A stretch of 64,000 bases of DNA from Mailhella sp. (GTDB lineage Bacteria > Desulfobacterota > Desulfovibrionia > Desulfovibrionales > Desulfovibrionaceae). Every line of letters begins with the position of its first letter. Within the stretch, counting starts at the first letter, position 1. Positions 1 through 16,420 of this stretch are shown here, piece by piece. The notes beneath the pieces are model-generated. The model was not told the origin of the DNA and made no database searches. It saw only the letters and a program-made list of their open reading frames with translations. Position numbers and translations under genes: made by a program. The stretch lies in contig JAFQTU010000016.1 of NCBI GenBank assembly GCA_017408905.1, positions 520 through 64,519 of the forward strand. The letters run 5' to 3'.

Positions 1-1
1 C

Positions 2-289
2 ATCTTTGTCGGGTCGGGCTATGCTGTCACGTCCAACCGCGAGAGCGGGCGCGGCAGGGCCGATATCATTGTCAAGGACCAGCGCAATTCCCGTTCCGCC
101 GTCATCGAGGTGAAGCACGCCAGCGCCAGCGCAGAGCTTATTCCCCTCGCCGAAGCCGCTCTTCAGCAGATAGACGAGAAGGAATACGACGCCCCCCTGC
201 GCGACAATTACGAGACCGTTATCCACTGGGGCATGGCGTTCTTCGAGAAGCGATGCATAGCGAAGTTCAAGATGGCTGTATCCCAATAA
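2..289 (+). CDS. C-terminal part (5' truncated by window edge) of an AAA-ATPase-associated PD-(D/E)XK nuclease-domain protein
   Basis: Manual translation of frame 2: ...VTSNRESGRGRADIIVKD...AVIEVKH...ALQQIDEKEY...WGMAF, stop TAA at 287-289. The SNRESG-G-R-D...IE-K...AL-QI...Y pattern is typical of this family. Confidence 0.75.
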   Translation: MFVGSGYAVTSNRESGRGRADIIVKDQRNSRSAVIEVKHASASAELIPLAEAALQQIDEKEYDAPLRDNYETVIHWGMAFFEKRCIAKFKMAVSQ

Positions 290-333
290 CGGGCAAAGGG
301 CTGACCTGAGGTGTTCAGGCCAGCCCCTTTTCG

Positions 334-588
334 TCAGTCGGGGGGGGATTCACGCGGCGTCAGCTCATAGCCCATGAGATGCGCCATTTCCCGCAACGGC
401 TCCACATTTCTGGTGAAGCTCATGATCTCGAAAAGTGTCATAGCGCCCAGCTTCGCCCCCTTGTCGTAGGGATTGCATTCCCGCATCAGCGTGGAATACG
501 GCTTCCTGATACCCCGGGCTATCTCATTGGCGGTATAGCCGCTTTGAAAGAGCGCCTCTTGAAACACGGAAAGCAACCTGTTCTCCAT
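334..588 (-). CDS. Phage regulatory CII-family protein (84 aa)
   Basis: Contains EIARGIRKPYSTLMRECNPYDKGAKLG, which resembles the CII-family small regulators seen in Desulfovibrionaceae. SD-like GGGAG precedes the ATG. Confidence 0.65.
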   Translation of the reverse strand: MENRLLSVFQEALFQSGYTANEIARGIRKPYSTLMRECNPYDKGAKLGAMTLFEIMSFTRNVEPLREMAHLMGYELTPRESPPD

Positions 589-624
589 ACCTAAACTCCC
601 CTTTTGGCTGATTTTGATATCATC

Positions 625-642
625 TGATACTCATGAGTATCA
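625..642. promoter_or_regulatory. Perfect 18-bp palindrome TGATACTCATGAGTATCA, candidate repressor operator
   Basis: Direct inspection. It lies in an AT-rich region upstream of the CII-like gene, among related TGATA/TATCA half-sites at about 615-705. Confidence 0.55.
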
Positions 643-967
643 CTCTTTTCTCATTCCGTGGTGTTGTAGAGATGTGATACTAACGCGATATCAATGATTA
701 TCACCATAGCCTATAGGCGAAGTTGGGCAGATTGCCTCTATCGGTATGCCGTTGGCAGGTCTATTGCCCCTTCCATTACAGAATCTTCGTCAACGCCTCC
801 TTCACGCGCCACACGGGCAGCAAGTCAAAGAGTTTCCACTTTGTTTCGCGGAACGTCTGTTCTTTGGTGAGCACAACCAGCTCGAAGAGGCGGTAACGCC
901 ACGTGCGTGTGATGTGCGCCTGAGCCATACCCAGAGTTCCGGGTTGTCGCGGCGCATGAAGGTATGG

Positions 968-1093
968 ATGCCGCAGTCGTACGTTTCGAAGTATGAAAGC
1001 GGGGAACGCAGGCTCGATGTTGTCGAGTTCATTGCCGTGGCTACGGCGCTGGGCGAAGACCCCCTTGAGCTTCTGCGGCAGGTCATCGAATAA
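968..1093 (+). pseudogene. Truncated XRE-family HTH regulator (C-terminal half only)
   Basis: PQSYVSKYESGERRLDVVEFIAVATALGEDP is a classic XRE C-terminal half. The upstream frame lacks a recognisable first helix and start. Confidence 0.6.
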
Positions 1094-1155
1094 AAAAAAG
1101 AGGCAGAGCCCCCCTGCCCTTCTCTGCCTGCCCACGTACATACGTTTTAAACGCC

Positions 1156-1184
1156 AAAGGCTCCACCGGAAAACCGATGGAGCC
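1156..1184 (-). terminator. Intrinsic terminator downstream of tRNA-Pro
   Basis: Minus strand GGCTCCATCGG-TTTT-CCGGTGGAGCC followed by TTT. Confidence 0.65.
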
Positions 1185-1192
1185 CTTTGACA

Positions 1193-1267
1193 TGGTCGGG
1201 GCGACTGGGATCGAACCAGCGACATCCTGCTCCCAAAGCAGGCGCGCTACCGCTGCGCTACGCCCCG
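1193..1267 (-). tRNA. tRNA-Pro (TGG)
   Basis: Cloverleaf with acceptor stem CGGGGCG/CGCCCCG, anticodon arm CCTGC-TTTGGGA-GCAGG, T-loop TTCGATC and encoded 3' ACCA. Confidence 0.97.
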
Positions 1268-1314
1268 CACAAGAAAAGGCCGCACGCCAAGAGCATACGG
1301 CCTTTCCTTATGAA

Positions 1315-1791
1315 TTAGTAAGCCATGATGGTGAAGTTGTCGCGGCGGTTCTTGGCCCACACTTCTTCGCCAGTGCCCTGAGCGGCAGGACGGTCTTCAC
1401 CGAAGGAGATGACGTCGAGCTGTTCGGCAGGCACGCCGAGGCGGATCATGTAGTCGTACACAGCGCGGGCGCGGCGTTCGCCGAGAGCCTGGTTGTATTC
1501 GGCAGTGCCGCGTTCGTCGCAGTTGCCGGCGATGAGCACCACGATGGAGGGGTACTGCTTCAGGGTGTCGGCCATGCCCTGCAGCATGTCGCGGTATTCA
1601 GCCTTGATGTCGTACTTGTTGAAATCGAAGTAAACGACGTTCTTGGTGAGCTTCTTGCTGATAGCCTTGGTGGAAACGGCGGGAGCAGCGGGAGCGGCAA
1701 CTTCTTCCACGTTCTTCTTGGCGCAGCCGGCGCCCATGGCGAGGCCGAGACCGAGGACGGTGACCATAGCGAGAGTCTTGAGAGACTTCAT
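1315..1791 (-). CDS. pal: Peptidoglycan-associated lipoprotein Pal (OmpA family)
   Basis: Lipobox-like GAGC, VYFDFNKYDI, GNCDERGTAEYNQALGERRA and NRR motifs; adjacent to tolB. Confidence 0.92.
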   Translation of the reverse strand: MKSLKTLAMVTVLGLGLAMGAGCAKKNVEEVAAPAAPAVSTKAISKKLTKNVVYFDFNKYDIKAEYRDMLQGMADTLKQYPSIVVLIAGNCDERGTAEYNQALGERRARAVYDYMIRLGVPAEQLDVISFGEDRPAAQGTGEEVWAKNRRDNFTIMAY

Positions 1792-1926
1792 GTTTAACTC
1801 CTCCTGAGAGTTGACCTGATATTTCTCTTTCCCGGCGGCCCCTCGGCTGCCGTAAAAGAAAGAACTTTATAGATGGACCAAGTTCGGATAATGCTCCGGG
1901 CCTCGGGCATTGTCAAGATTTAATTG

Positions 1927-3240
1927 CTACTTGCCCCAGCGCGGGAAGGCGGCATTGCCCGGGCCGGTGGGCATATGCTTGGCCGGGCCGCCGTGGCGCG
2001 TGGTAAGGTATATCTGCTGTTTGCCGCTTCTGGTGGAGGTGAAGGCCACAAAGTAGCTGTCGGGCGCGAAGGCGGGCTGTTCATCGCTTCCCGGGCCGTA
2101 GGAAACCTGCTGGTCGAAGCCCGTTACCATGTCGTACACGAAAATGCGGAAGCCCTGCGGCGTTCCCTTGGTGTAGGCGATGAGCGTACCGTCCGGGCTG
2201 ATGCAGGGTTCGGAATTGTACGAACCTTCCTTGCTTACGCGGGTGACGGCGCCGGTGTTCAAGTCCTTCAGGAACACCTGCGGCCCGCCGAGGCGGCTGG
2301 ACGTGAAGGCCATCTTGGTTCCCGTGGAGTCGAACGAGGGAGAGACGTTGATGGCCGAGCTCTGTTCAAGGGCGCGTTCACGCTTGAACTGGCGGTCGAG
2401 CAGGAAGATGTCGGGGTAGCGCCCCGTGGAAAGGCTCACGGCCACGCGGTTGTCGGGCAGGAAGCAGGGGCCGATGACGGTGTTGCCGGGGAAGCGGATG
2501 CGCGTCACCTTGTTGGCAAGGCGATCCCACACGCCAAGGGCGTAGGTGCGTTCGTCGCGGTGGCTGAACACGATGTAGCGCCCGTCAGGCGACCACGAGG
2601 GCGAAAGCGCCGAGCCGGGCAGATTGGTGACCTGCCGCAGGTCGCGCCCGGTGGGGCGCACCAGCCACACGTCGCGCTTCTTGCCGTCGCCCTTCACAAA
2701 GGCCACCGTACTGCTGAAGAAGCCGCGCCCGCCGGTAAGGGCATACATGAGGTCGTCGCAGAAGCGGTCGGCTACGTTGGCCACCTCCTGCTTGGTCACG
2801 CCGGAATAGGCGTTGCCGAACACGAACTTGCCCGAGAAGGTCTCGAAAACGCGAAGCTCCACCGTGGAATTCTCGCTGTCGCCAGCGGGCCAGTAGGCCG
2901 TGACCACAAGGTCCGCCCCGGCTATCTGGAAGCGGCGGAAGTCGATGCCCTCGCTCTGCCAGCCGGAAAGCACCGTGCCGCCGAGGATAGCCCCGGAGGG
3001 GACCAGCTTCATGAAGGGCAGGAAGTTGAGGTTCTTGTCGATCTCCTTATGGAGGTCGGCCCCAAGTTCCTTTGCTTCCGCCTCAGGCCCGGTGAGCGGG
3101 GAAGCCATGGAAAGGTTGATCTGGTTCTGGCCGGGGCCGTAGATATCGATGAGCGTGGCGGCCTGCGCCTGCATGGCGAAGACCAGCACGAAAACAGCGG
3201 CGAACAGCGAGCGAAGGCCGTGGAAAAAGCGTATGTCCAT
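1927..3240 (-). CDS. tolB: Tol-Pal system beta-propeller protein TolB
   Basis: Signal peptide, TolB N-domain and repeated PSWSPDG/PD40 motifs. Start placed at the ATG at 3240 with an upstream AAGGA. Confidence 0.9.
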   Translation of the reverse strand: MDIRFFHGLRSLFAAVFVLVFAMQAQAATLIDIYGPGQNQINLSMASPLTGPEAEAKELGADLHKEIDKNLNFLPFMKLVPSGAILGGTVLSGWQSEGIDFRRFQIAGADLVVTAYWPAGDSENSTVELRVFETFSGKFVFGNAYSGVTKQEVANVADRFCDDLMYALTGGRGFFSSTVAFVKGDGKKRDVWLVRPTGRDLRQVTNLPGSALSPSWSPDGRYIVFSHRDERTYALGVWDRLANKVTRIRFPGNTVIGPCFLPDNRVAVSLSTGRYPDIFLLDRQFKRERALEQSSAINVSPSFDSTGTKMAFTSSRLGGPQVFLKDLNTGAVTRVSKEGSYNSEPCISPDGTLIAYTKGTPQGFRIFVYDMVTGFDQQVSYGPGSDEQPAFAPDSYFVAFTSTRSGKQQIYLTTRHGGPAKHMPTGPGNAAFPRWGK

Positions 3241-3375
3241 TTCATGCACATCCTTCAAGGATTTTGAAAAACAGAGCATATTCCGGCCCGCTGGGATGGT
3301 CAAGAGCCGCCTTCCCGCACCCGGACAAGGAAAAGGCCGAAGCGCGGTGCGTTCCGCATCTCCAGCCTTCCCAAG

Positions 3376-3675
3376 CTAGGCTTCGCGCGGCGGCGACAGC
3401 AGGGCCGCCTTCGCGTTCCGGGGCGCTTTCTTCACCCGCGCTTCAAGGCGGAGCGCCTCCCCCTGCGTCAGGCCCTGCGTGAAGGCCGTCAGGGTCACGG
3501 GACGGCGTCCGCGCGTGTATCTGGCCCCGCCCGCCCTCCTGCCGTTGTGCATATCGAGGCGGCGTGGCAGGTCCTTGGTCACGCCGCAATACAGAGTGCC
3601 GTCGGCGCAGGTAAGCAGATAGACGCACCAGTCGCGGGCCGGGGCGTCGCCCTTCGCTTCTTCCTCAGTATTCAT
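3376..3675 (-). CDS. GIY-YIG nuclease family protein (about 99 aa)
   Basis: WCVYLLTCADGTLYCGVTKDLPRRLDMHN...GARYTRGRRP...ALRLEARVK. The start overlaps the crcB stop (ATGA). Confidence 0.88.
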   Translation of the reverse strand: MNTEEEAKGDAPARDWCVYLLTCADGTLYCGVTKDLPRRLDMHNGRRAGGARYTRGRRPVTLTAFTQGLTQGEALRLEARVKKAPRNAKAALLSPPREA

Positions 3676-4079
3676 GCGCGTTCCTCGTGCGGCGCGGCAA
3701 GAAGCCAGCCAAGGCCGGCCAGCGCCACGCAGAGCGCCGTGTTGAGGCCGATATTCAGCAGGGCGAAGCTCATGTGCCCGCCCTGCCAGAGCTTCACCGT
3801 GTCCAGCGCGAAGGACGAAAACGTGGTGAAGCCGCCAAGGAAGCCCGTCCCAAGAAAGGCGTTCAGCCACGGGGCGGCAGGGCAGGCCTGCCCCATGCGG
3901 GCGAGCAGGCCCATAAGCAGACCCATGACGAAAGACCCCGCCATGTTGACGCACAGTATGCCCAGCGGGAAATGACCGCCCATAGCCGCCATGACAGCGA
4001 CGTTCCCGTGGACGCGGCAGAGCGCCCCCAGCGCACCGCCCAGAAGGACAGGCAGAGAAAGCAGGATATTGCGTTGCAT
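3672..4079 (-). CDS. crcB: Fluoride channel Fluc/CrcB (copy 2)
   Basis: GGALGALCR, NMAGSF and GFLGGFTTFSSF signature motifs. Confidence 0.92.
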   Translation of the reverse strand: MQRNILLSLPVLLGGALGALCRVHGNVAVMAAMGGHFPLGILCVNMAGSFVMGLLMGLLARMGQACPAAPWLNAFLGTGFLGGFTTFSSFALDTVKLWQGGHMSFALLNIGLNTALCVALAGLGWLLAAPHEERA

Positions 4080-4088
4080 GGTTCCTCC

Positions 4089-4481
4089 TCAGGGATGTGC
4101 GGGAACGGCGGCGGGCGTGAGCAGGGAAAGGCCGAGAGCGGCGGCGCTCAGGCAAAGCGCCATACTGAGCAGGAGGTTCGCCCACGCACACGCCATGCGG
4201 CCTTCGCGGAAAAGGCGGAAGCTGTCCATGGAAAAGGTCGAGAAGGTCGTGAGCGCCCCGCAGAAGCCCTGCATGACAAGATCGTCCCACGGGCTGGGGG
4301 CAAGGCGGCCAAGCGCTATGGCCGACGCAGTGAGGCCGATGAGGAAAGAACCCGCCACATTGACCGCGAGCGTTCCCACAGGGAAGCGCCCGCCGAACAG
4401 CGCCGTGGCGGCCAGCCCTGACCAGAAGCGGCCCAATGCGCCCAGCGCGCCGCCAAGTGCGATGAAAAGAAGGGATTCCAT
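4089..4481 (-). CDS. crcB: Fluoride channel Fluc/CrcB (copy 1)
   Basis: GGALGALGR, FPVGTLAVNVAGS and GFCGALTTFSTF. ATG at 4481 with GGAG SD. Confidence 0.9.
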   Translation of the reverse strand: MESLLFIALGGALGALGRFWSGLAATALFGGRFPVGTLAVNVAGSFLIGLTASAIALGRLAPSPWDDLVMQGFCGALTTFSTFSMDSFRLFREGRMACAWANLLLSMALCLSAAALGLSLLTPAAVPAHP

Positions 4482-4564
4482 GCTGTTCTCCAGAGGGAAA
4501 GGATCCTGTGTTTTCGCCCTGCTGTCAATGCGGGGCGGAAGGACGTGCCCCCGCCCCTCCCGCA

Positions 4565-5779
4565 TCAGAGCTTGTAGGCCGACTCGCCGTGCAGGGCCTC
4601 GTCAAGGCCGGTGAGCTCCTGTTCCCGGCTCACGCGGATGGGGCCGAAACGGCTGATGAACTTCAGGATGAACCAGCTCACGCCGAAAGACCAGATGGCC
4701 ACCACGAGGATGCCGAGGAGCTGGAGGAAGAACTGCTCCAGCCCGGCTTCCACATGGTTGATGCCCGACGAGGCGAAGACGCCGATGAGCAATGCGCCGG
4801 TCACGCCGCCCATGCCGTGCGCACGCCAGACTTCGAGGGCGTCGTCGAAGCGGAGCTTTTCCTGCACGCAGCGGGAGAAGTAGCAGACCACCGCGCCCGC
4901 CGCACCGATGACAATAGCGGCCCACGGCGGCACGTAGCCCGCCGCCGGGGTGATGGTGGCAAGGCCCGCCACCGCGCCCACGAGCACGCCGGAGAACGAC
5001 GGCCTGCGCTCATGCCGCCAGTCCAGCAGCATCCAGACCAGCATGGCGATAGAGCCGGAAATGGTGGTGTTGGTGAAGGCGTAGGAAGCGAGGTCGTCCG
5101 CGGCATAGGCACCGCCCGCATTGAAGCCGAACCAGCCGAACCACAGAAGGCCCGCCCCCACGGCCACAAGGGGCAGGTTGTTGGGCTCGGCCTTCTCGCC
5201 CGGGGCGATATCGTCGCGCGGGCCCATGAACATCACCGTGGCAAGGGCCGCAAAGCCTGCGCTCACATGGATCACGATGCCGCCTGCGAAGTCCACCACG
5301 CCAAGGCGGGCAAGGAAGCCGCCGCCCCATATCCAGTGGCAGGCCGGGAGATAGACGAGTATCATCCAGAGCACGAGGAACTGCAGGTAGCCCCGGAAGT
5401 TGAAGCGCCCCGCAAACGCGCCGGTGATGAGCGCGGGCGTGATGATGGCGAACATGAGCTGGTAGGCGAAGAAGAGGATGAAGGGAACGGTGCTGGCGTA
5501 GTCCGGGCTGGGGGCCGCACCTACCTTGTCCAGAGCGAAGTGATAGCTGATATCCCCGATGATGCCGTTCACGCTGGGCCCGAAGGCAAGGCTGAAGCCG
5601 CCGAATATCCAGATCACGGCAATGACGCCCATGGAAATGAAGCTCTGCATCATAATGGTCAGCACGTTCTTGCGCCGCACAAGGCCGCCGTAGAAGAAGG
5701 CCAGCCCCGGCGTCATCAGGCAGACCAGAGCCGTGCAGAACAGGATGAAGGCGGTATCGCCGGTATTGGCCACAGGCAT
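4565..5779 (-). CDS. amt: Ammonium transporter (Amt family)
   Basis: LMTPGLAFFYGGLVRRKN, DFAGGIVIH, WFGWFGFNAG and a second conserved His (RAHG). Confidence 0.95.
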   Translation of the reverse strand: MPVANTGDTAFILFCTALVCLMTPGLAFFYGGLVRRKNVLTIMMQSFISMGVIAVIWIFGGFSLAFGPSVNGIIGDISYHFALDKVGAAPSPDYASTVPFILFFAYQLMFAIITPALITGAFAGRFNFRGYLQFLVLWMILVYLPACHWIWGGGFLARLGVVDFAGGIVIHVSAGFAALATVMFMGPRDDIAPGEKAEPNNLPLVAVGAGLLWFGWFGFNAGGAYAADDLASYAFTNTTISGSIAMLVWMLLDWRHERRPSFSGVLVGAVAGLATITPAAGYVPPWAAIVIGAAGAVVCYFSRCVQEKLRFDDALEVWRAHGMGGVTGALLIGVFASSGINHVEAGLEQFFLQLLGILVVAIWSFGVSWFILKFISRFGPIRVSREQELTGLDEALHGESAYKL

Positions 5780-5792
5780 GGGAAACCTCCTG

Positions 5793-6797
5793 TCAGGCTG
5801 AAGGTGAAGGCGTGCGATGGCTTTCCGGCATGAACTGGATGTTCGGAAGCAGGAAGAGCCATGCGGCTATGACAAAGGGGAAGGTGAGCGTGGGGATGCC
5901 CAGCGGGGCCAGCGCCACGTTGAGCGCCCCCTGCGCCACGACCGTGAACACCGTTCCCAGCAGGGCGTAAAGGATGACGCGCCAGTTGGGGCTGTAGAAG
6001 GCGGAACCGAGGCCTATGGCCGTGAGGACGGCGCTGAACTGGTAAAGCCCCTCGGCCACGGCTCTCTCATCCGCGCCAAGGAAAGCCGCCGTGGCAATGG
6101 CCACCGCCGAACCGCACCATGCAAAGATGGAAGCCGGAAGCGAAGCCCCGGCAAGCCCCACAAGGAAGAGCAGGCCCGTGACTTCGTTCCCGATGAGAAA
6201 GACCTGCGACACCCCCTTGAGCACGGCCCGGGCCAGCACTTCGACATCGGGGAGCATGGCCATAGCCTCGGAAGGCTGGGCTGGCAGGGAAGGATGGGGC
6301 AGGCCCGTGATCTTGAAGTGGGCGAAATTGTACGAGGCCAGCAGGATGAACCATGTGGTGAAGACAAAGGGCCCTGTCATGGCCGAGACCTTCCACGTCC
6401 GCAGGAAGCGCGAGACCGCCAGCATGACGACCGTGGAAAAGAAGGAGCCTGCCACCACCAGCACCCAGCACACCGCCGTGCTCCCGAAGAAGGTGGGGAG
6501 CGCACAGCCCACAAGGATGCCGTTGTAGCCGTGCAGACCCTTGCGGATATCTTCCCCCGGCGCGCCGAGGATGCAGGCGGCCAGCGTTCCCACGACAAGG
6601 CCGACCAGCGCCCCCAGCGCCACTTCCGGGATGCCTTCCGCCCATGCGCCCCAGGCGATACCCAGCAGGAAGAAGAGGCCGCACCATGCGGAATCCTGAA
6701 ACATGACCTGCGCCGCCCCGCGCAGAAGCGTATCCACCCAGCGCAGGAAATGGCAGTTCCCGGCCATGCGCGCCCATGCGTTCTTTCGTTCTGTCAT
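5793..6797 (-). CDS. yut: Urea transporter (UT/Yut family)
   Basis: LRGAAQVMFQ and LKGVSQVFL repeats, GLHGYNGILVG, PTLTFPF; sits inside the urease cluster. Confidence 0.9.
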   Translation of the reverse strand: MTERKNAWARMAGNCHFLRWVDTLLRGAAQVMFQDSAWCGLFFLLGIAWGAWAEGIPEVALGALVGLVVGTLAACILGAPGEDIRKGLHGYNGILVGCALPTFFGSTAVCWVLVVAGSFFSTVVMLAVSRFLRTWKVSAMTGPFVFTTWFILLASYNFAHFKITGLPHPSLPAQPSEAMAMLPDVEVLARAVLKGVSQVFLIGNEVTGLLFLVGLAGASLPASIFAWCGSAVAIATAAFLGADERAVAEGLYQFSAVLTAIGLGSAFYSPNWRVILYALLGTVFTVVAQGALNVALAPLGIPTLTFPFVIAAWLFLLPNIQFMPESHRTPSPSA

Positions 6798-6820
6798 AGT
6801 CCGTCCTTTCGGCTGAAGGT

Positions 6821-7819
6821 TCAACGCCAGAGGAATTCTGGGGGAAGCGGCCTGCCCAGCACGGCCTTGCGCACAAGGGAATGGAATTCGCGCATCTTGC
6901 CGCGCACCTTTCCCACGTCATGCCCCAGTACGCGCAGGGCCAGCCCCGCGCCGTTCGGCAGTACGGATGCGCCCCATGCCAGTTCGCCGGAAACCTCGGA
7001 GCCGACGGCGTTCTTGAGCGAGGCCGTGTGGCGTTCCGGCACAAAGGCATAGACCGAGCCCAGGACCTCGAACGCGCCCATGACGCCGACATTGCGGAAA
7101 TCCATGTCGTCCGGCTCGAGCACAAGGCGCTCCTCGAAGAGGATATCGCCCTCTTTCCCGCCCGGGCGCGAGACGTTCAGGCCTGCGGAATAGATGTCGA
7201 AGCCGAAAAGCTCCTCCTCGTGATGCCAGCGCCGCCCGGGAACGAGAAGCTCGCCGTACACGAAGGAAGCCGAGGCAGGAAGCGTGACGAAGCTGTCCTG
7301 AAGGTAGCGGGAACGGCGGTGCAGGATGAGCGGGTCGGGCATATATTCAAGGTACGCCCCTTCGCCAAGGCAGAAGCGCTGTATCTGCGCGGCATAGCTG
7401 TGATCCATGCTGTGCACCTTGGCGGCGCTCTGCGTGGTCACAAGGGCGCAGGACGCAGGCCCGGCGTTCACGTCCAGCGCAAGGCGGTCGCCCTGCACCA
7501 CGCAGCCTGAGGAGGCTATCACGATGACGCAGGCCATGCCGGGCTGGGATTCCTCCCAGTACAGAGCCTTCTGGGCAAGGAGCGGGGCGCGGCGCTCCAT
7601 ATCGGCAAGCACGGTGCGCCCGCGCGCCTCGTCGTGGCGGAAGTCGAGCCGCAGATATCCGGCCTTGCCCACACTGCCGCTGGCCATCTGCGGCGGTTCG
7701 TCCTGAAAGGGGGAAAGTTCCGAAGCCTGCGCCCCCATGCCTGCCACACTGCGGCGTGCGGCTTCGAAGCTGGAACAGTCCGGGCAGAACGCCGCTTCCT
7801 GCGAAAAAAGCCCCGGCAT
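6821..7819 (-). CDS. ureD: Urease accessory protein UreD
   Basis: GCVVQGDRL, LVTTQSAAKVH, LEYMPDPLI; position after ureG. Confidence 0.9.
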   Translation of the reverse strand: MPGLFSQEAAFCPDCSSFEAARRSVAGMGAQASELSPFQDEPPQMASGSVGKAGYLRLDFRHDEARGRTVLADMERRAPLLAQKALYWEESQPGMACVIVIASSGCVVQGDRLALDVNAGPASCALVTTQSAAKVHSMDHSYAAQIQRFCLGEGAYLEYMPDPLILHRRSRYLQDSFVTLPASASFVYGELLVPGRRWHHEEELFGFDIYSAGLNVSRPGGKEGDILFEERLVLEPDDMDFRNVGVMGAFEVLGSVYAFVPERHTASLKNAVGSEVSGELAWGASVLPNGAGLALRVLGHDVGKVRGKMREFHSLVRKAVLGRPLPPEFLWR

Positions 7820-7821
7820 GG

Positions 7822-8463
7822 TCAGGCTCCCCTGCCGGAGCGGCAAGGCACGTCGAAGAGCGCGTCGCGCCGGATCCACGCGGCAAGTGTGTCGATATTG
7901 CGGCCCGTCATGCAGTTGGTGAAGAGGAAGGGCCGGTCGCCTCGCATGAGTCTGGCGTCGCGCTCCATGACCTCGAGGCTTGCCCCCACGTAGGGCGCAA
8001 GGTCTTCCTTGTTGATGACAAGGATGTCCGACTGGCAGATGCCCGGCCCGCTTTTGCGCGGTATCTTGTCACCGGCGGCCACGTCGATGACATAGATGAA
8101 AAAGTCGGCCAGCGCCGGACTGAAGGTAAGGGTCAGGTTGTCGCCGCCGCTCTCGATGAAAATGACATCGCTGTCCGGGAAGCGCTCTTCAAGCTCTTCC
8201 ACGGCGGCAAGGTTCATGCTCGGGTCTTCGCGTATGGCGGTATGGGGGCAGGCCCCGGTCTCCACGCCCACGATGCGTTCCGGCTCCAGCACACCGGCAA
8301 GGGCGCGGCGCACGTGCTGGGCGTCTTCGGTGGTCACCACGTCATTGGTTATGATGAGCGGGCGCACCCCTTCGCGCATGAGCAGGGGCACAACGGCCTC
8401 GATGACCGCCGTTTTGCCGGAGCCCACCGGGCCGCCCACGCCTATCCTCGTGATCTTCTTCAT
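7822..8463 (-). CDS. ureG: Urease accessory GTPase UreG
   Basis: [35 protein letters not shown]. Confidence 0.97.
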
Positions 8464-8474
8464 ACAATATCCTT

Positions 8475-9263
8475 TCAGCTCATAAAGAGCCGCACCCGGC
8501 CCTGCGAGTGTACGGCGGCCAGGATATCCGTCATGGGCGCATAGCCCGTCATACGGCTCAGGGGAGTCTCGAAGGTGCGGCGGCAGAGCTCGGGGAAGAG
8601 TTCGGAACTGCGGTACATGATGCCCTGCACGTCGTAATGGGTAACGCGCATGAGCCTGAGCGCCGCGTTGAGCAGGCCCATAGCCACACCGTAGAAATAG
8701 ACCGTGAGCCCCTCCTGCGCGAGGGCTTCCACCTCGGCGTTCCCTTCCTCCGTTCCCTCGGCATGGCGCAGAGGGCGCTGGGCAAAGGCGGACGCCGCAA
8801 GGAGCACCGCCAGCGACACAGGGTAGCACCCCGGAGAAGAGCCCATGCGGAGCTGTCTCATCCAGCGGTCGGCCAGCGGGGAACAGGTCATGGAAGCGGA
8901 AAGCTCGGCCAGCTTGCGGCCCGTGCGCGTCATCATGTCGCGGAACTCCTCGGGGAGTTTGCGGCGGTAGAGCGCAAGGTCGATGGTGCGCAGGCGGGTA
9001 AGGGCCGCTTCGCTCACCGGGCCTCCCATGCTCACCGGGTCGGCACAGAGGCGGCGAAGGGCGTGGTCCAGCCCCACGGCATCGCCGGTGGCGCATTGCC
9101 GCAGGGCCGTGACCACGTACTGCTGGAGCGTAGCCGCATCGTGCACGGCGCCCTTCTGCACGGCGGCTTCCAGCGCCCCGGAAAACGCGAAGGCGCCCGT
9201 GGGCAGCATGGAATCGCCGAACTGCAGGAGGCGTACCAAGGAAAGGATGCCCGCCGCTTCCAT
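8475..9263 (-). CDS. ureF: Urease accessory protein UreF
   Basis: [21 protein letters not shown] at the N-terminus; H...RLFMS at the C-terminus. Confidence 0.92.
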
Positions 9264-9270
9264 GCCAGCC

Positions 9271-9948
9271 TCACAATTCCTTATGGTGGCCATGCCGCCG
9301 ACCCCTGTGCCGCCGCCCATGCGGGCCGCACGGATGCTCGTGATGACCGCCGCCGTGCCTGTGCTCGCGCCCGAAGCCATGACTGAGCAGGGCCTCGTGC
9401 TCATGGCTATGCCCGCCCTGCTCCGCTCCGCCGAAAAGGCGGCGTGCCTCGTGCTCGTCCAGAAGGTCGAGCACGTCTTCCCCGGCGGCGAAGACATAGC
9501 TCACACCGGGCACGGCATGGGTGTCCATGACGGAAGCCGCCACGTTCTTGTCGGTGGAGACCGGCACGAAGACCGTGCTCCCCTTGACCACGGCGGGCCA
9601 GTGCTGGTTGCCCAGCGCGTGGCCGAGGCGCACGGAGGAAGCGAGCGCATCTTCCGCAGGCAGGGAGGCAAGGCCGGACATATCGAGCAGCATGACGGGG
9701 CAGAGCCTGATGCGGCAGACCACGGCACAGCGCTCTTCTTCGTTCCAGTCGAGGATATCGCCGTTTCGCAGGCTGTGGCCGCGCTCCAGAGCCACCGCCA
9801 TAGGCCGTCCGCCTGCGGTCGCCTTGCGGAAACGATTCTTCTGCGCATCCCACTGACTGAGCTCCAGCCAGTCTATCCGCGCCCCTTCCAGCCGCCTCTT
9901 CCAGTCCGCATCGGCGGCATTGCCAAGAACAGAATCGAAAATCTCCAT
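9271..9948 (-). CDS. ureE: Urease nickel chaperone UreE with His-rich C-terminal tail
   Basis: KNRFRK, LRNGDIL, GHALGNQHWP; His-rich tail. Confidence 0.92.
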   Translation of the reverse strand: MEIFDSVLGNAADADWKRRLEGARIDWLELSQWDAQKNRFRKATAGGRPMAVALERGHSLRNGDILDWNEEERCAVVCRIRLCPVMLLDMSGLASLPAEDALASSVRLGHALGNQHWPAVVKGSTVFVPVSTDKNVAASVMDTHAVPGVSYVFAAGEDVLDLLDEHEARRLFGGAEQGGHSHEHEALLSHGFGREHRHGGGHHEHPCGPHGRRHRGRRHGHHKEL

Positions 9949-9959
9949 CGAAAAACCGC

Positions 9960-11678
9960 CTAGCTGAAGAAGTAGAGCTGACCGAGCGCCACGCTCCTGG
10001 CCGGGGGAACAGTGGCGTGCACACCGTCCACGGTAACGGCAAAGGTCTCGGGATCGACCTCCACCTTGGGCAGGAAGGCGTTACGCACCATGCAGTGCTT
10101 GGAAAGCGTGCGCATACCGCGCACGGCTTCCACACGGCTCCGAAGGCCCAGCTTCTCGCCAACGCCCAGTTCCTTGGCCGCCTGCGACACGAAGATGATG
10201 CGCCCGGTCTGCCGCCTGAGGCCGATGCCGCCGAACATGGGGCGGTAGATGACCGGCTGGGGCGTAGGCAGGGAGGCGTTGGGGTCGCCCATGACGGACC
10301 ATGCTATCATGCCGCCCTTAAGCACCATCTGGGGTTTGGCTCCGAAGAAGCGCGGATCCCAGAGCACGAGGTCGGCCACCTTGCCCTTCTCCACCGAACC
10401 GATGAGATGGGACACGCCCTGAATAATGGCCGGGTTGATGGTCACCTTGGCCACGTAGCGGAGCACGCGGAAATTGTCGTGCCTATCGCAGTCTTCCGGC
10501 AGAGGGCCGCGAGCCGCCTTCATGGCGCTGGCCGTCTGCACGGCGCGGAGCCAGTTCTCGCCCACGCGGCCCATAGCCTGCGAATCGCTGGAGAAGCAGG
10601 AGATAGCGCCCATGTCGTGCAGGACGTTCTCGGCGGCAATGGTCTCGGCCCTCACGCGGCTCTCGGCAAAGGAGACGTCCGAAGGGACATTGTGGTTCAG
10701 GTTATGGCAGACCATGATCATGTCGAAGAGCTCGGCCTGCGAATTGACGCCGAAGGGCAGGGTCGGGTTGGTGGAGCTGGGCAGGACGTTGGGGTAGGAA
10801 ACAGCCTTGATGATATCCGGGGCATGGCCGCCGCCCGCGCCTTCGGTGTGATAGGTGTGGATGACGCGGCCTTCCATAGCGGCGATGGTGTCTTCCACGT
10901 AGCCCGCTTCGTTCAGGGTATCGGTATGAATGGAGACCTGCACGTCCATCTCGTCGGCCACGGCAAGGGCATGGCGTATCATGGAAGGCATGGCGCCCCA
11001 GTCTTCATGGATCTTGAAGCCGCAGGCCCCGGCCTCTATCTGCTCGCGCAGGGGCAGGGGGGCGCTGGCATGGCCCTTGGCCAGAAGGCCCACGTTCACG
11101 GGCATGGCTTCCACGGCTTCGAGCATACGGTGTATGTTCCATTCCCCGGGGGTGATGGTCGTGCCGTTCGTGCCGTCCGTAGGGCCTACGCCGCCGCCGA
11201 AGAACGTGGTCACGCCGTTGGAAATGGCGGCCTCGCCCTGCTGGGGGGAAATGAAGTGGACGTGCGAATCGATGCCGCCGGCCGTAAGGATGAGGTGCTC
11301 GCCGGAAATGGCGTCCGTGGCGTTGCCCACTACGAGTTCCGGGCTCACGCCGTCCATGACGGCAGGATTGCCCGCCTTGCCTATGCCCGCTATCATGCCG
11401 TCGCGTATGCCCACGTCGGCCTTGATGACGCCCTGCACGGCGTCCACGATGGTCACGTTGGTGATGACGATATCCAGCACGCCGCTGTCGCGCCCGGTGC
11501 GGGAATCGCCGCCCATACCGGCGCGAAGGGTCTTGCCGCCGCCGTAGATGGACTCGTCGCCGTAGCCGCGCAGGTCCTTTTCGATTTCCACGTAAAGGTC
11601 GGTGTCGCCAAGGCGGATGCGGTCCCCCACGGTGGGGCCGAACAGCGAAGAGTATTCTTTTCTTGAGATCTGCGCCAT
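9960..11678 (-). CDS. ureC: Urease subunit alpha
   Basis: Nickel ligands are intact: [40 protein letters not shown]; flap MVCHNL. Confidence 0.99.
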
Positions 11679-11687
11679 GCGCCCTCC

Positions 11688-12080
11688 CTAGTGACGGACG
11701 TTCTTGAAGCCGAGAGCGTCGGCTCTGGCAATGTTGATGGAGCGGGCATGCCTGTCACCCGTCCACGAATCCACGAGGTCGTTGAAGCCGTACGCGGCGC
11801 GAAGGCCGCCGAACGGCACGAGCTCCACGCTCTTCTCGTCGCCGGGTTCGAAGCGCACCGCCGTGGTGGAGGCGATGTTCAGGCGCATACCGTAGGCCGC
11901 GGCCCGATCGAACTCCAGAGCACGGTTCACCTCGAAGAAATGGAAATGGGAACCTACCTGAATGGGCCTGTCGCCGGTATTGCGCACCTTGATGGTCGTC
12001 ACAGGCCTGCCTTCGTTGAACGAAACCGGGGCTTCGGCATAGATGACGCCGCCCACGGGTATCTTGTCTTTCGTGTCCAA
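11688..12080 (-). CDS. ureB: Urease subunit beta
   Basis: [28 protein letters not shown]...AVRFEPG; TTG start. Confidence 0.97.
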
Positions 12081-12142
12081 GCGCGTTTCCTTTTCGCCGC
12101 AGGGTACGGCCTGCGGGCTGATTATGAGGAAGGGGAAAAACG

Positions 12143-12445
12143 TCAGCGTATGGGGTCGTGCACGGTGACAAGGCGGCTGCCGTCCGTGAACACGGCTTCG
12201 AGCTGGACGAAGGGTATCATCTCGGGCACGCCTTCCATGACATCGGCACGGGTGAGCACGCTTCCGGCCAGATGCATGACCTCTTCCACGCTCTTCCCGG
12301 CCCTGGCTTCTTCCAGAGCTTCCGAAGTGATGTAGGCCACGGCCTCGGGGTGATTGAGCCTGAGCCCGCGCCCTTTGCGGCGGCGGGCCACTTCGCCCAG
12401 CGCCAGCACGAGCAGCTTGTCCTTTTCTCGCGGGGTAAGATGCAT
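12143..12445 (-). CDS. ureA: Urease subunit gamma
   Basis: [11 protein letters not shown]...LNHPEA...[15 protein letters not shown]; AAGGAGG SD. Confidence 0.98.
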
Positions 12446-12655
12446 GATGCCTCCTTTTCTCTGGCGGCCCTGCCGAACCGCCCTGATATGAAGGAAGCCT
12501 AGCCCCGCTCGCATGAGAGGGAAATTGTAATGATGACGGGCACTTTGATAATCATAGCAAAAGCCCCTCCGCCGCTTTTCCCGGCAGAGAGGCTTCGCAG
12601 TTGACGCTTCTGCCCTGCGGACGTAAAACAGGGGCAAACGCAAAGGCAGGTAGAT

Positions 12656-13684
12656 ATGGCAAGGTATTCAGCCACGATCAGCAACGAGCACATGGTTGCC
12701 GTACGCTTCAGCTCCATGGGCGACGTCGCGCTCACCACGGGCGTCCTCCTCGACTGGCACAAGAAGCACGGGACCATGTTCACGGTCGTCACCAAGGAAG
12801 CGTTCGAGCCGCTTTTCGAGAACCACCCGGCGGTGCAGAACGTCATCGGCTGTGACGACAACGACCTGCGCGGTCAGGCCCAGCCCATACTTTTCCGCCG
12901 CATCATGGAGCTGTACAAGGATTCGCCCCTGCTCGACCTGCACCGCAATCTCCGCACCGGCATGATGGCCCGCATCTGGCGCGACGCTATCCTTATCTAT
13001 AAGAAGATGTCCTTTGCCCGGAGGATATTCCTGTGGAGCAAGGGGCGCTTTTTCGGCGAAGCCCTGCGCAGGTACAACGTGCCCCAGCGCTATGCCATCG
13101 GGCTGTATGACGAGGCCGACGTGCCCGGCCCGGAAGAACTGCGGCCCTGCGTCTTCCTTTCCGAGGCGGAAAAAAGCTGGGCGGCGGAACAGGTAGCGGC
13201 GTTGCGCGAGGCCGGGAAGCCCTTTGTGGCCCTTCACCCCTTTGCCACGCACAGCGCCAAAAGCTGGCCTATGGACGTGTGGATGGAATTTGCCGCCCTG
13301 CTCCGTGAAAACGGCATCCGCTATTTCTGGGTGGGGCGTGGCGAAGGCCTGCCGGAAGGCGAAGCGGAACGCTCCTTCGTGAACGCCACCAGCCTGCGCC
13401 AGCTCTGCGCCCTTCTCGATGCGGCCGACGTGCTCGTCACGGGCGATTCCGGCCCCATGCACCTCGCCACCGCCGTACAGACGCCCGCCCTTGCCATGTT
13501 CGGCCCTACCTGCCGCGAATGGGGCTTCTTCCCCTCCGGCGAAAAGGATCGCGTCATCCAGCTCGATATGCCCTGCCGCCCCTGCTCGCTCCACGGTTCC
13601 GGCGTATGCCCCAAGGGCAACGCCTGCATCACCGGGATAGCGCCCGAGCGCATCCTTGCCGAACTGCAGGATATGCTTGCCTGA
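12656..13684 (+). CDS. Glycosyltransferase family 9 (LPS heptosyltransferase-like)
   Basis: [27 protein letters not shown] and FGPT motifs. Confidence 0.88.
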
Positions 13685-13726
13685 TCACGATACCATGCCT
13701 TCTCCGCTCAACGGGGAAGGCATTTT

Positions 13727-16420
13727 TCATGGGCCGGGCCGCTCCATGGCATAGCGCCCGCGTTCAAACTTCCAGTGCATGCTGAACGTGCCGAGTTCGG
13801 ACGTGCTCAACAGAGGTATGGAGTTCCGCGCCATCTCCTCGCGCACGATGCGGCTGGGAAAGCCGAAATGGCTGAACGGCGCGGCGGACGCCAGCGCCAC
13901 ACGAGGGGCCACCTTGCGGTAAAACGCCTTCTGGAAGCTGGAGGCCGCGCCATGATGCGGCAGGACCAGCACCTCCGCCGCCAGCTCCTGACCGCTGTGG
14001 GCAAGCTCCTTCAAGGAGGCGGAAAGCATATCGCCGCAAAGAAGCGCCAGCCCCTGCCCCTTATGCGAAAGGCGCAGAGCTAGAGACGCACTGTTGGACG
14101 AAAGGTCTTTTTCCGAAGGGAGGGGCAGGCCCTCCGGCAAGGCTGGGGCCAGCACTTCCAGCTTCAGGCCCTCGTTCAGTTCCAGAGTCTCGCCCTGCCG
14201 CAGTATCCGTTCCGGGATGCCGCGTGCTCTGGCCCGTTCGCGCAGGGCCAGGCCCTCTCCGCTGTCGGCCCGATGCGCCGAAATAGCCGACCAGTACAGC
14301 GCTCCCACCTGAAAATGCTCCAGTATCCAGCGAAGGCCGCGGGCATGGTCCACATCGCAGTGGCTGACGATGACGGCATCGAGGCGGGGCAGGCGCCCTT
14401 CTGTCAGCCTTGGCGCAACGATGCTCCTGCCGCAATCGAAAAACGGGGACGTACTGCCGCCGCCATCCACAAGGATGCGGCCTCCCGGGTATTCCAGCAG
14501 AACGGCCTGCCCCGCGCCGACATCTATCATGGTGAGCGAAACGCGCTTCTCCAGCCACGCGCGCCCGTCATCGAAACAGCGCGGCACGAATCCCAGCAGG
14601 AAGATGGCCGCACCGAAGGCAAGGAGGCGCTTCAGCGATGCGCCCACCGCCCTGCCGTCCAGACGAGCCTGCGCCATGAACGCCGCTGCGGCAAGAACAG
14701 CACCATAGCCCAGTGCGCTGAGAGGGGAAGGACGGAAGCTCTGCACGAAGGGCAGGCCGCCTATAGAGTCCAGCTTTTCCAGCAGGGCAAGCATCAGGTC
14801 GGCAGGCCACGCGGCGAGCGTGAACAAGAGGGACGCCAGAGACGGAACGTCCATGACGGCCAGCAGAAGACCGCAGGCGGCCAGAGGCAGAGTGAGGAAC
14901 GTCAGCGGCGGAAGCCAGACAAGGTTCAGCCAGAACTGCGGGCTCACCACGCCGAAATTCATGACAAGGATGGGAAGGACGGCGGCCTGTGCGGCAAGGG
15001 AAACGAGGAGGAGCGATGCGGCCGCGCGGAGCAGTTTCTTCGCGGCCCAGCGCCAGAACGCTTCCGTACGGCCGACGGCGAGGCGCGCATCAAGGGCCGA
15101 CAATAGCGGCATACTGCCCATGATGCCGGCCACGGCCAGCACGGAAAGCTGGACGGAGAGCTCAAACACGGCTGGCGGCCATGCAAGGAAGAGCAGGAAA
15201 ACGGCGGCGAAAAGGGCGTCGAGCGGGGCGGACGCCCTGCGCAGGCAAAGGAAAACAGCTCCCGCCAGCATCATGAGGGCGGCCCGTACCAGCGAAAACG
15301 GCGCTCCGCCAAGGAAGAGGTAGGCCAGCGCAAAGGGCAGGCTGGCATAGGCAAGGAGCGTCCGGCGCGGACAGCGCTGGAAAACGCGGGGAGCGAACAG
15401 CGACAGCACGGCCACGCTGAACACGGCGAACAGGGCCGCCAAAGCCAGATGCTGGCCGGAAAGCGCCAGAGAATGGACGAGCCCGGCCCGGGTGAAAAGG
15501 TCGATGGTATGCGGGCTGAGTACGGAGCGATCCCCGAATAGCAGTGCCGCAAGCATCGCCGCGCCCTGCGAAAACGCCGCGCCAGCCCCTTGGGCCGAGG
15601 CCATGCCTTCAGCGCATCCTTGGTGCGAAGACAGCCCCTTCCCAAGAAGGGCCATCATGGCACTGCGCCACGACTCCCGCATGGCGGCAGAGGCATAAGT
15701 CCAGCCTTTTCCCGCCTCAAAGCGCAGAAAAAGTACCTCGCCCCTGCTTCACACGAGGCGGGCGTTATGCCACACTTCCCTTGCGGCCCAGTACCTTCCG
15801 AAGCCGTTTTCCCCGGCATTCCTGCTCCCGCCCGAGGGAAACAGCCTCAGGAGCGCCGTCACCTTCTGCCCGGGAAGAGGTCTTCCGCAGTGCTCCATCT
15901 GCCGGGAGTCCAAGGTCAGCGACACAAGGCCCGGAAGAACGGCCCTGTCGTCGCGGAACAGGCCTCCGGCGTAGCTCTTCTTCCCGCTTTCCGCATGGGC
16001 GAAGCGCGGCGCGGCCATAGCCTTGCGCATCCTTTCCCGGCGCTCCGGGGCCACATCCGCCGGGATATCGGCCTGTTTCAGCCCACGGAGGAGAAGACGC
16101 ACCCTGCCGCCGGGAAGCCCCGAGGCCGAGTCCACCAGCCCTTCGACGAGCAGAGCCTGCCGAGGCACGGCGGCCCACGAAGGCTTGTCCGGGACTTCCG
16201 GCAGGGCAAGAACGACGGCGACCGCGCCGACAAGGAAGGCCGCCAGCAGTTTCAGCCCGCGCCGGACAGCATCCCCGCCCCTTCCCCTTTCAGGAACGAA
16301 CACGAGCAGGACGAGAAGCGCCGCGCCCACGGAAGGAGCGCGCACGGCGCAGGCCCCTGCGATGAGGGACAGTATCAGCGTCTGCCGGAAAAGGAGGGAA
16401 GGGAGATAGCGGCGGGGCAT
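13727..16420 (-). pseudogene. comEC: ComEC/Rec2 competence channel interrupted by an in-frame TGA at 15751-15749
   Basis: ORFs 15749-16420 and 13727-15682 share one frame, separated only by the TGA. ComEC motifs: GLVHSLALSGQH, DVGAGQA, SHCDVDHARG, PHHG. Confidence 0.85.

Follow-up and report, generated by a model that had tools for sequence, protein, structure and literature searches.

A Fluc-type channel gene pair linked to one lineage of urease clusters in Mailhella and other Desulfovibrionaceae

The window considered here, a stretch of 64,000 nucleotides from Mailhella sp. (family Desulfovibrionaceae; GenBank assembly GCA_017408905.1, 1.96 Mb in 80 contigs; contig JAFQTU010000016.1, positions 520 to 64,519), carries a urease gene cluster that is followed by two genes for small channels of the CrcB (Fluc) family, and this review of the locus asks how the two are connected. 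The genes form a series on the minus strand, ureA-ureB-ureC-ureE-ureF-ureG-ureD, a UT-family urea channel gene (UT; yut-like), amt, crcB1, crcB2 and a small GIY-YIG gene, all of which are co-oriented (Table 1). This order had been claimed in an earlier annotation made from the letters of the DNA (the sequence-only reading), and it is borne out by the open reading frames (ORFs) and the Pfam matches; the gap of 83 bp that was claimed between amt and the first crcB is exact, with the amt stop codon ending at 4565 and the crcB1 ATG at 4481. The nickel urease set is complete: Pfam recognizes the gamma subunit, UreE, UreF, UreG and UreD, and ureB and ureC are identified through their ORFs and their orthologues. 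The start codons of ureB, ureD, ureF and UT are best choices within longer ORFs. At the far end of the series, the stop codon of crcB2 overlaps the start of the GIY-YIG gene (ATGA, 3672-3675).

Both channel proteins match PF02537 over the whole domain of ~125 amino acids, with 90.6 bits for crcB1 and 84.7 bits for crcB2 against a cut-off of 32.9. The crcB1 product aligns over its full length with the solved channel Fluc-Ec2 and contains the sequence TTFSTF, and the crcB2 product aligns with the solved Fluc-Bpe. Both subunits keep the Arg of the first transmembrane segment (TM1), the Asn of the second (TM2, in a VN motif), the TTFS(T/S)F Phe box and the acidic residue that follows it. Because these signature residues are kept and the proteins align end to end with solved channels, fluoride is the expected substrate of the pair. 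The two proteins are 45% identical to each other. As for a heterodimer, they are adjacent, diverged paralogues that are kept as a pair in all 24 members of the clade described below, in which each subunit forms its own subtree.

The linkage was surveyed in a family sample of 200 genomes from 72 genera. A ureC gene is present in 28 of them, and these genes fall into three classes by identity to the ureC in the window, namely type A (76-95%), type B (53-60%) and type C (44-46%). The Fluc pair lies directly downstream in 20 of the 20 type-A clusters that could be assessed, which come from at least three GTDB genera and from a genome labelled 'Ca. Bilophila faecipullorum'; four further type-A clusters are cut by contig ends and stand outside this count. 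Besides that of the window, 14 Mailhella genomes have the pair after amt on one contig. Complete type-A clusters beyond Mailhella, in G098, G227 and G186 (genus g74) and in G211 (genus g81), all have the pair, and the 'Ca. Bilophila faecipullorum' genome has the same order, amt and then the pair. A metagenome scan added five more contigs with amt followed by the pair. One of the islands, in G186 (L138 3629-5588), has no amt, and its UT gene is followed directly by the two crcB genes. Since the pair is kept there after UT, it would appear to be tied to the urease and urea-channel part of the island rather than to amt.

The picture is different at other urease loci. None of the 23 others in the order, which are of types B and C, has a crcB gene within ~9 kb, and no UT or amt was detected in that range either. 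The gene-neighbourhood check that the sequence-only reading had proposed supports a physical link between the Fluc pair and urease that is specific to type A (20/20 versus 0/23). Likewise, crcB was found within ~9 kb at 0 of 40 urease loci in Pseudomonadota and within 1.5 kb of ureC at 0 of 30 loci in Actinomycetota (the latter sample includes one unpublished genome, G326, which is counted only toward the genomes with ureC). The search was also made from the side of the channel. The nearest relatives of crcB1 outside of the family are ~50% identical and are mostly gammaproteobacterial single genes; urease-linked representatives were sought among them, and urease genes were present within 10 kb at none of the 79 loci checked.

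The closest urease cluster from outside of the family is that of G595 (Pseudomonadota; L325 188-7614), which has a ureC that is 71% identical and the order amt-ureABCEFG...UT; there is no crcB within its fetched flanks. It is possible that this cluster is a relative of the ancestor of the island before Fluc was added. Because it has amt and UT and lacks crcB, the Fluc pair seems to have joined the island within the Desulfovibrionaceae.

The phylogenetic trees, which are quick IQ-TREE and FastTree reconstructions, agree with a long association. Among the 78 CrcB sequences of one tree, the urease-linked crcB2 genes and those of G020, G149, G013 and the second pair of G227 form one clade (Shimodaira-Hasegawa-like approximate likelihood ratio test, 100). 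This clade sits on a long stem and is separate from the single crcB genes that are native to the Desulfovibrionaceae, including the singles of urease-negative Mailhella. The same groups are recovered in a concatenated crcB1 and crcB2 tree and in a tree of UreA, UreB, UreC and UreG. The genes outside of the island vary by lineage. For example, crcB2 is followed on its 3' side by GIY-YIG, tolB and pal, by an esterase gene and then GIY-YIG, by a major facilitator superfamily transporter gene, by a convergent SNF symporter gene, or by a hypothetical gene and TctC. Only the main Mailhella clade has the tolB-pal flank. The small GIY-YIG gene, which encodes a protein with a nuclease fold, comes after the pair in all of this clade and also in G098 and G017.

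Copy numbers add to this. Most Desulfovibrionaceae have a single crcB. However, G211 (Desulfovibrio sp. ZJ369) has three, a native single gene and the urease-linked pair, and G019, G017 and G227, too, have another crcB copy besides the pair. Four congeners of G211 have one crcB each, and three of the four carry a type-B urease. To the left of the island, G211 and the congeners are syntenic up to a point ~0.6 kb ahead of ureA; nothing in the congeners corresponds to the segment that runs from ureA to crcB2. Since this segment is missing in congeners with one crcB each, the pair in G211 arrived together with the urease genes. The claim of transfer between genera depends on the GTDB genus labels together with this break in synteny. 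Taken together, the 20 of 20 clusters, the agreeing trees, the varying outer flanks and the co-acquisition in G211 argue that the linkage is old and co-inherited and is not a chance adjacency.

The pairs that are no longer beside a urease, those of G149 and G013 and the second pair of G227, have long terminal branches (~1.0-1.2 compared to a median of 0.2). These could reflect a changed constraint after the loss of urease, or the species could simply be divergent.

The urease-negative relatives are instructive. G020 is a Mailhella genome of 98% completeness without ureC, and it has crcB1-crcB2-GIY-tolB-pal preceded by the same promoter as the one discussed below. Its shared flanks are 93-94% identical in nucleotides to those of its close relative G014, which has 8.4 kb between them that correspond exactly to ureA to amt; on the right, the insertion or deletion ends just 5' of the hairpin that separates amt from crcB1. 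Because the trees place G020 next to G014 within urease-positive lineages, the absence of urease in G020 is best described, on these comparisons, as a secondary loss by a clean 8.4-kb deletion of ureA to amt. The sequence-only reading had named as its refuting case a crcB with its own transcription that is next to tolB and GIY-YIG in urease-negative relatives, the urease block having simply been inserted beside it. The first half of this does exist, in G020 with its predicted promoter; the second half is contradicted by the trees, which indicate deletion and not insertion. The difference between G020 and G014 had also raised the idea that the pair is a mere neighbour of urease and nothing else; as the sole explanation, this was dropped after the family survey, the copy numbers and the trees. 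Two more urease-negative Mailhella genomes, G149 and G013, have the pair, and in G149 it is followed by a tolB-type beta-propeller gene.

The spacer between amt and crcB1 contains the signals that bear on transcription. The crcB1 promoter candidate consists of TTGACA (4528-4523), 17 nt, and GATCCT (4505-4500), and is followed by GGAG and the ATG. The pattern TTGACA-N17-GATNYT occurs in 14 of the 17 Mailhella genomes, including the urease-negative G020, at -43 to -48 from the crcB1 ATG; the spacing is always 17 nt and the surrounding sequence is variable. We read this footprint, as distinct from a mapped start site, as a conserved sigma-70-type promoter of crcB1 with a leader of ~20 nt that would be too short for a riboswitch. 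Directly past amt there is a stem-loop with a 10-bp stem; all of the lineages examined have a stem-loop in this position, and that of G014 and G020 resembles a proper terminator. The whole spacer folds at -36 kcal/mol, with a z-score that is only -1.2 given the GC-rich context. The pair, together with GIY-YIG, is most probably driven by a constitutive sigma-70-type promoter of its own, and some read-through from the urease operon past the hairpin, which has no U-run, may contribute. The genera g74 and g81 have a shorter gap of 47-60 nt between amt and crcB1, into which the Mailhella promoter would not fit; this suggests that the two genes are co-transcribed in these genera.

Control of the pair by a fluoride riboswitch (RF01734) was considered and dropped. 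Positions 1-16000 of the window gave no Rfam match to it at E<=1, none was found before the pair in 41 related genomes, and the window's own genome has no match. Riboswitches of this kind do occur in relatives. G026, from a neighbouring family, has one directly 5' of its crcB. Two Mailhella species have a genuine one (47 bits) far from the crcB pair, at L052 (G024:C8) 1501-1575 (-) and at G002:C170:22837-22911; that of G024 precedes an unannotated ORF of 237 amino acids and a gene for a GGGtGRT protein (PF14057).

The lack of a riboswitch before the pair, when relatives use them at other loci, together with the separate clade and its long stem, might suggest that these proteins are Fluc-like channels for a substrate of urea metabolism other than fluoride, for example another small anion, which would explain the linkage. 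We consider this very improbable. The fluoride-selective residues are kept in both subunits, the window's genome has no other Fluc, and we know of no Fluc with another substrate.

A sigma-54 promoter 5' of ureA or crcB1 was also looked for and rejected. No -24/-12 motif is present there; the whole window has three matches with one mismatch, which is below chance expectation, and none of them is near these genes. A gene for a GAF-PAS sigma-54 activator is directly 5' of ureA and co-oriented with it in G014 (L039 1-1582), and is 5' of crcB in G020 (L031 7142-9130). At the corresponding position, the window has heptosyltransferase and ComEC genes instead.

Because the stem-loop and the conserved promoter-like element separate the pair from amt, co-regulation with urease would not follow from the linkage, and several other observations also weigh against a functional tie. 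The pair persists without urease in G020, G149 and G013, the second copy in G227 has no adjoining urease, and two pair loci in the metagenome scan have none. Most urease clusters elsewhere do without a linked crcB. In the genome of the window, the pair is the sole crcB, so that it would be needed with or without urease (one CLC gene, of the long form and in an open frame of 964 amino acids, is also present). Finally, the 20 cases would represent one ancestral fusion with subsequent retention and transfer and not 20 independent events.

These observations could be explained by historical hitch-hiking, i.e., a housekeeping Fluc pair happened to be located beside the ancestral type-A urease and has been carried along as a passenger with its own promoter and no special functional tie. 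The clean deletion in G020, which left the pair and its promoter untouched, is what one would expect of such a passenger, as are the hairpin past amt and the status of the pair as the only Fluc in the window's genome; the type-B and type-C clusters without crcB, and the G595 cluster with amt and UT and no crcB, would also fit. However, hitch-hiking has more difficulty with the persistence of the adjacency. It is kept where UreD is only 33-49% identical and crcB1 ~50% identical, and where the genes on both outer sides have been rearranged at least five times. G211, G019 and G017 own a native crcB and yet keep the extra pair beside urease, and the short spacers of g74 and g81 point to a shared transcript of amt and the pair in these genera. 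We regard hitch-hiking as a serious contender that is nevertheless somewhat improbable.

The interpretation toward which we lean, although only slightly, is that the locus is a type-A urease island that has long had the Fluc pair as an accessory inherited along with it, probably under a promoter of its own, and that the pair may keep urease active under fluoride. The predicted mechanism would be as follows. Ureolysis fed by the urea channel would keep the cytoplasm more alkaline than the surroundings. Hydrogen fluoride would diffuse into the cell and, like other weak acids, would accumulate there as trapped F-, to an extent proportional to the pH difference. The F- would bind to the dinickel centre of urease and inhibit other enzymes as well, and Fluc would let it exit down the membrane potential, so that urease stays active. 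As a channel-fed urease maintains such a pH gradient, we infer that a linked Fluc would rid both the enzyme and the cell of trapped fluoride. Published work is in line with several of these steps: in the dinickel centre of urease, fluoride binds at Ni(1) and at the bridging position (PMC7433671), Fluc channels counter the accumulation of cytoplasmic F- when the outside is more acidic (PMC4144673), and a study on Klebsiella pneumoniae reports inhibition of both ureolysis and growth by fluoride in vitro (PMC11141357).

Protection of urease from fluoride by the pair is plausible; the role in acid resistance that the sequence-only reading had suggested is something that we can only infer. A promoter of its own and survival without urease would fit a gene that is generally useful and especially so beside a urease, and they fit hitch-hiking equally well. 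One could generalize that fluoride export is a selected accessory of channel-fed ureases, in which the pH gradient traps fluoride and a dedicated Fluc was recruited, once, in the type-A ancestor. We offer this wider proposal tentatively and would not call it probable.

The coordinates of the features are collected in Table 1. On the 3' side of GIY-YIG are tolB, pal and a tRNA gene, and a consensus scan finds a promoter-like site at 3303-3275. On the 5' side of ureA are a divergent GT9 heptosyltransferase gene and the ComEC gene. The first 17 kb of the window have a GC content of ~0.60-0.68, which leads to crowded ORF lists in all six frames.

Table 1. Features of the urease island in the window and of its immediate context.
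Feature	Position	Strand	Basis
Sigma-70-like promoter candidate 5' of ureA (TTATCA-16-TACAAT)	12524..12551	-	Consensus scan, prediction only
ureA, urease gamma subunit	12143..12445	-	PF00547 (Urease_gamma), 1e-41
ureB, urease beta subunit	11688..12080	-	ORF; orthologues in relatives 65-92% identity
ureC, urease alpha subunit, 572 amino acids, type A lineage	9960..11678	-	ORF and identity to relatives
ureE, His-rich C-terminal tail	9271..9948	-	PF02814 and PF05194
ureF	8475..9263	-	PF01730; start chosen is the ATG 7 nt past the ureE stop
ureG, GTPase	7822..8445	-	PF02492, 3e-33
ureD	6821..7819	-	PF01774, 5e-42; start chosen just past the ureG stop
UT-family urea channel (yut-like)	5793..6797	-	PF03253, 3e-89
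amt, ammonium channel	4565..5779	-	PF00909, 6e-114
GC-rich stem-loop directly past the amt stop, without U-run	4532..4557	-	RNA fold
Sigma-70-like crcB1 promoter, predicted; Shine-Dalgarno GGAG 4491-4488	4500..4528	-	Phylogenetic footprint
crcB1, Fluc subunit 1, 130 amino acids	4089..4481	-	PF02537, 9e-26
crcB2, Fluc subunit 2, 135 amino acids, urease-linked clade	3672..4079	-	PF02537, 6e-24
Small GIY-YIG protein	3376..3675	-	PF01541, 4e-13
tolB-pal, context outside the island	1315..3303 (tolB 1927-3303, pal 1315-1791)	-	tblastn

Two features of the urease genes themselves can be added. The tail of UreE has ~45 residues rich in His, Gly and Arg and is typical of nickel-storing UreE variants. 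The Rfam family 5_ureB_sRNA (RF02514) matches positions 11228-11528 of the window (+) with 65.9 bits (gathering score, 40). The matching strand is antisense to ureC and lies opposite the 5' part of the gene. Because many of the predicted pairs are non-canonical, this match most likely represents conserved urease coding sequence and not an antisense small RNA of the Helicobacter type.

Urease is one of the main routes by which gut bacteria control nitrogen and pH, and it has been linked to dysbiosis, and fluoride, which is common in diet and water, is a classic inhibitor of the enzyme. If the proposed explanation is correct, the joint movement of a Fluc and a urease island would be the first indication from genomes that ureolysis in nature is limited by fluoride, and urease activity or acid survival would be predicted to become sensitive to fluoride without the pair. 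Fluc channels would also gain a new biological context, one that is independent of riboswitches. Should the link be no more than historical, the locus is an ordinary urease cluster beside a housekeeping gene. The sequence-only reading knew of no description of the linkage, and that impression holds: in full-text searches that combined urease with crcB, Fluc or fluoride channel, no paper describing it came up. For example, a 2026 survey of Desulfovibrio genomes reports ureABCEF in Desulfovibrio desulfuricans and Desulfovibrio legallii, to which we assign no urease type here, and discusses urease with mention of neither crcB nor fluoride (PMC13653922).

How does the island compare with known systems? 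Its nearest counterparts by host are the type-B and type-C ureases, which are the same enzyme in the same family of organisms and differ in having no UT, amt or crcB detected within the ~9 kb surveyed. The fluoride riboswitch regulon, which comprises crcB, CLC-F and associated genes, shares with it crcB as the exporter, and, as noted above, some Mailhella have the riboswitch elsewhere; the difference is that no riboswitch precedes the pair in the window or in any member of the genus searched, where the conserved sigma-70-type promoter is found instead. The pair resembles heterodimeric Fluc pairs, and the solved homodimeric channels Fluc-Ec2 (5a43) and Fluc-Bpe (5a40), in being adjacent paralogues of ~130 amino acids that match PF02537 over their full length and keep the pore motifs. 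It differs from them in that both subunits in the window have the full set of motifs, in having no fluoride riboswitch, and in that the pair is distinct from the native single crcB of the Desulfovibrionaceae and is tied to one lineage of urease. Urease clusters that are fed by a channel are known from Yersinia (ureABCEFGD-yut) and Helicobacter pylori (ureAB-ureI-EFGH). Like these, the Mailhella cluster has a full nickel urease and accessory set followed by a co-oriented, dedicated urea channel gene, here of the UT family (PF03253) to which Yut belongs; unlike these, it adds Amt and a two-gene Fluc. All of the components are known, and it is their combination that is new.

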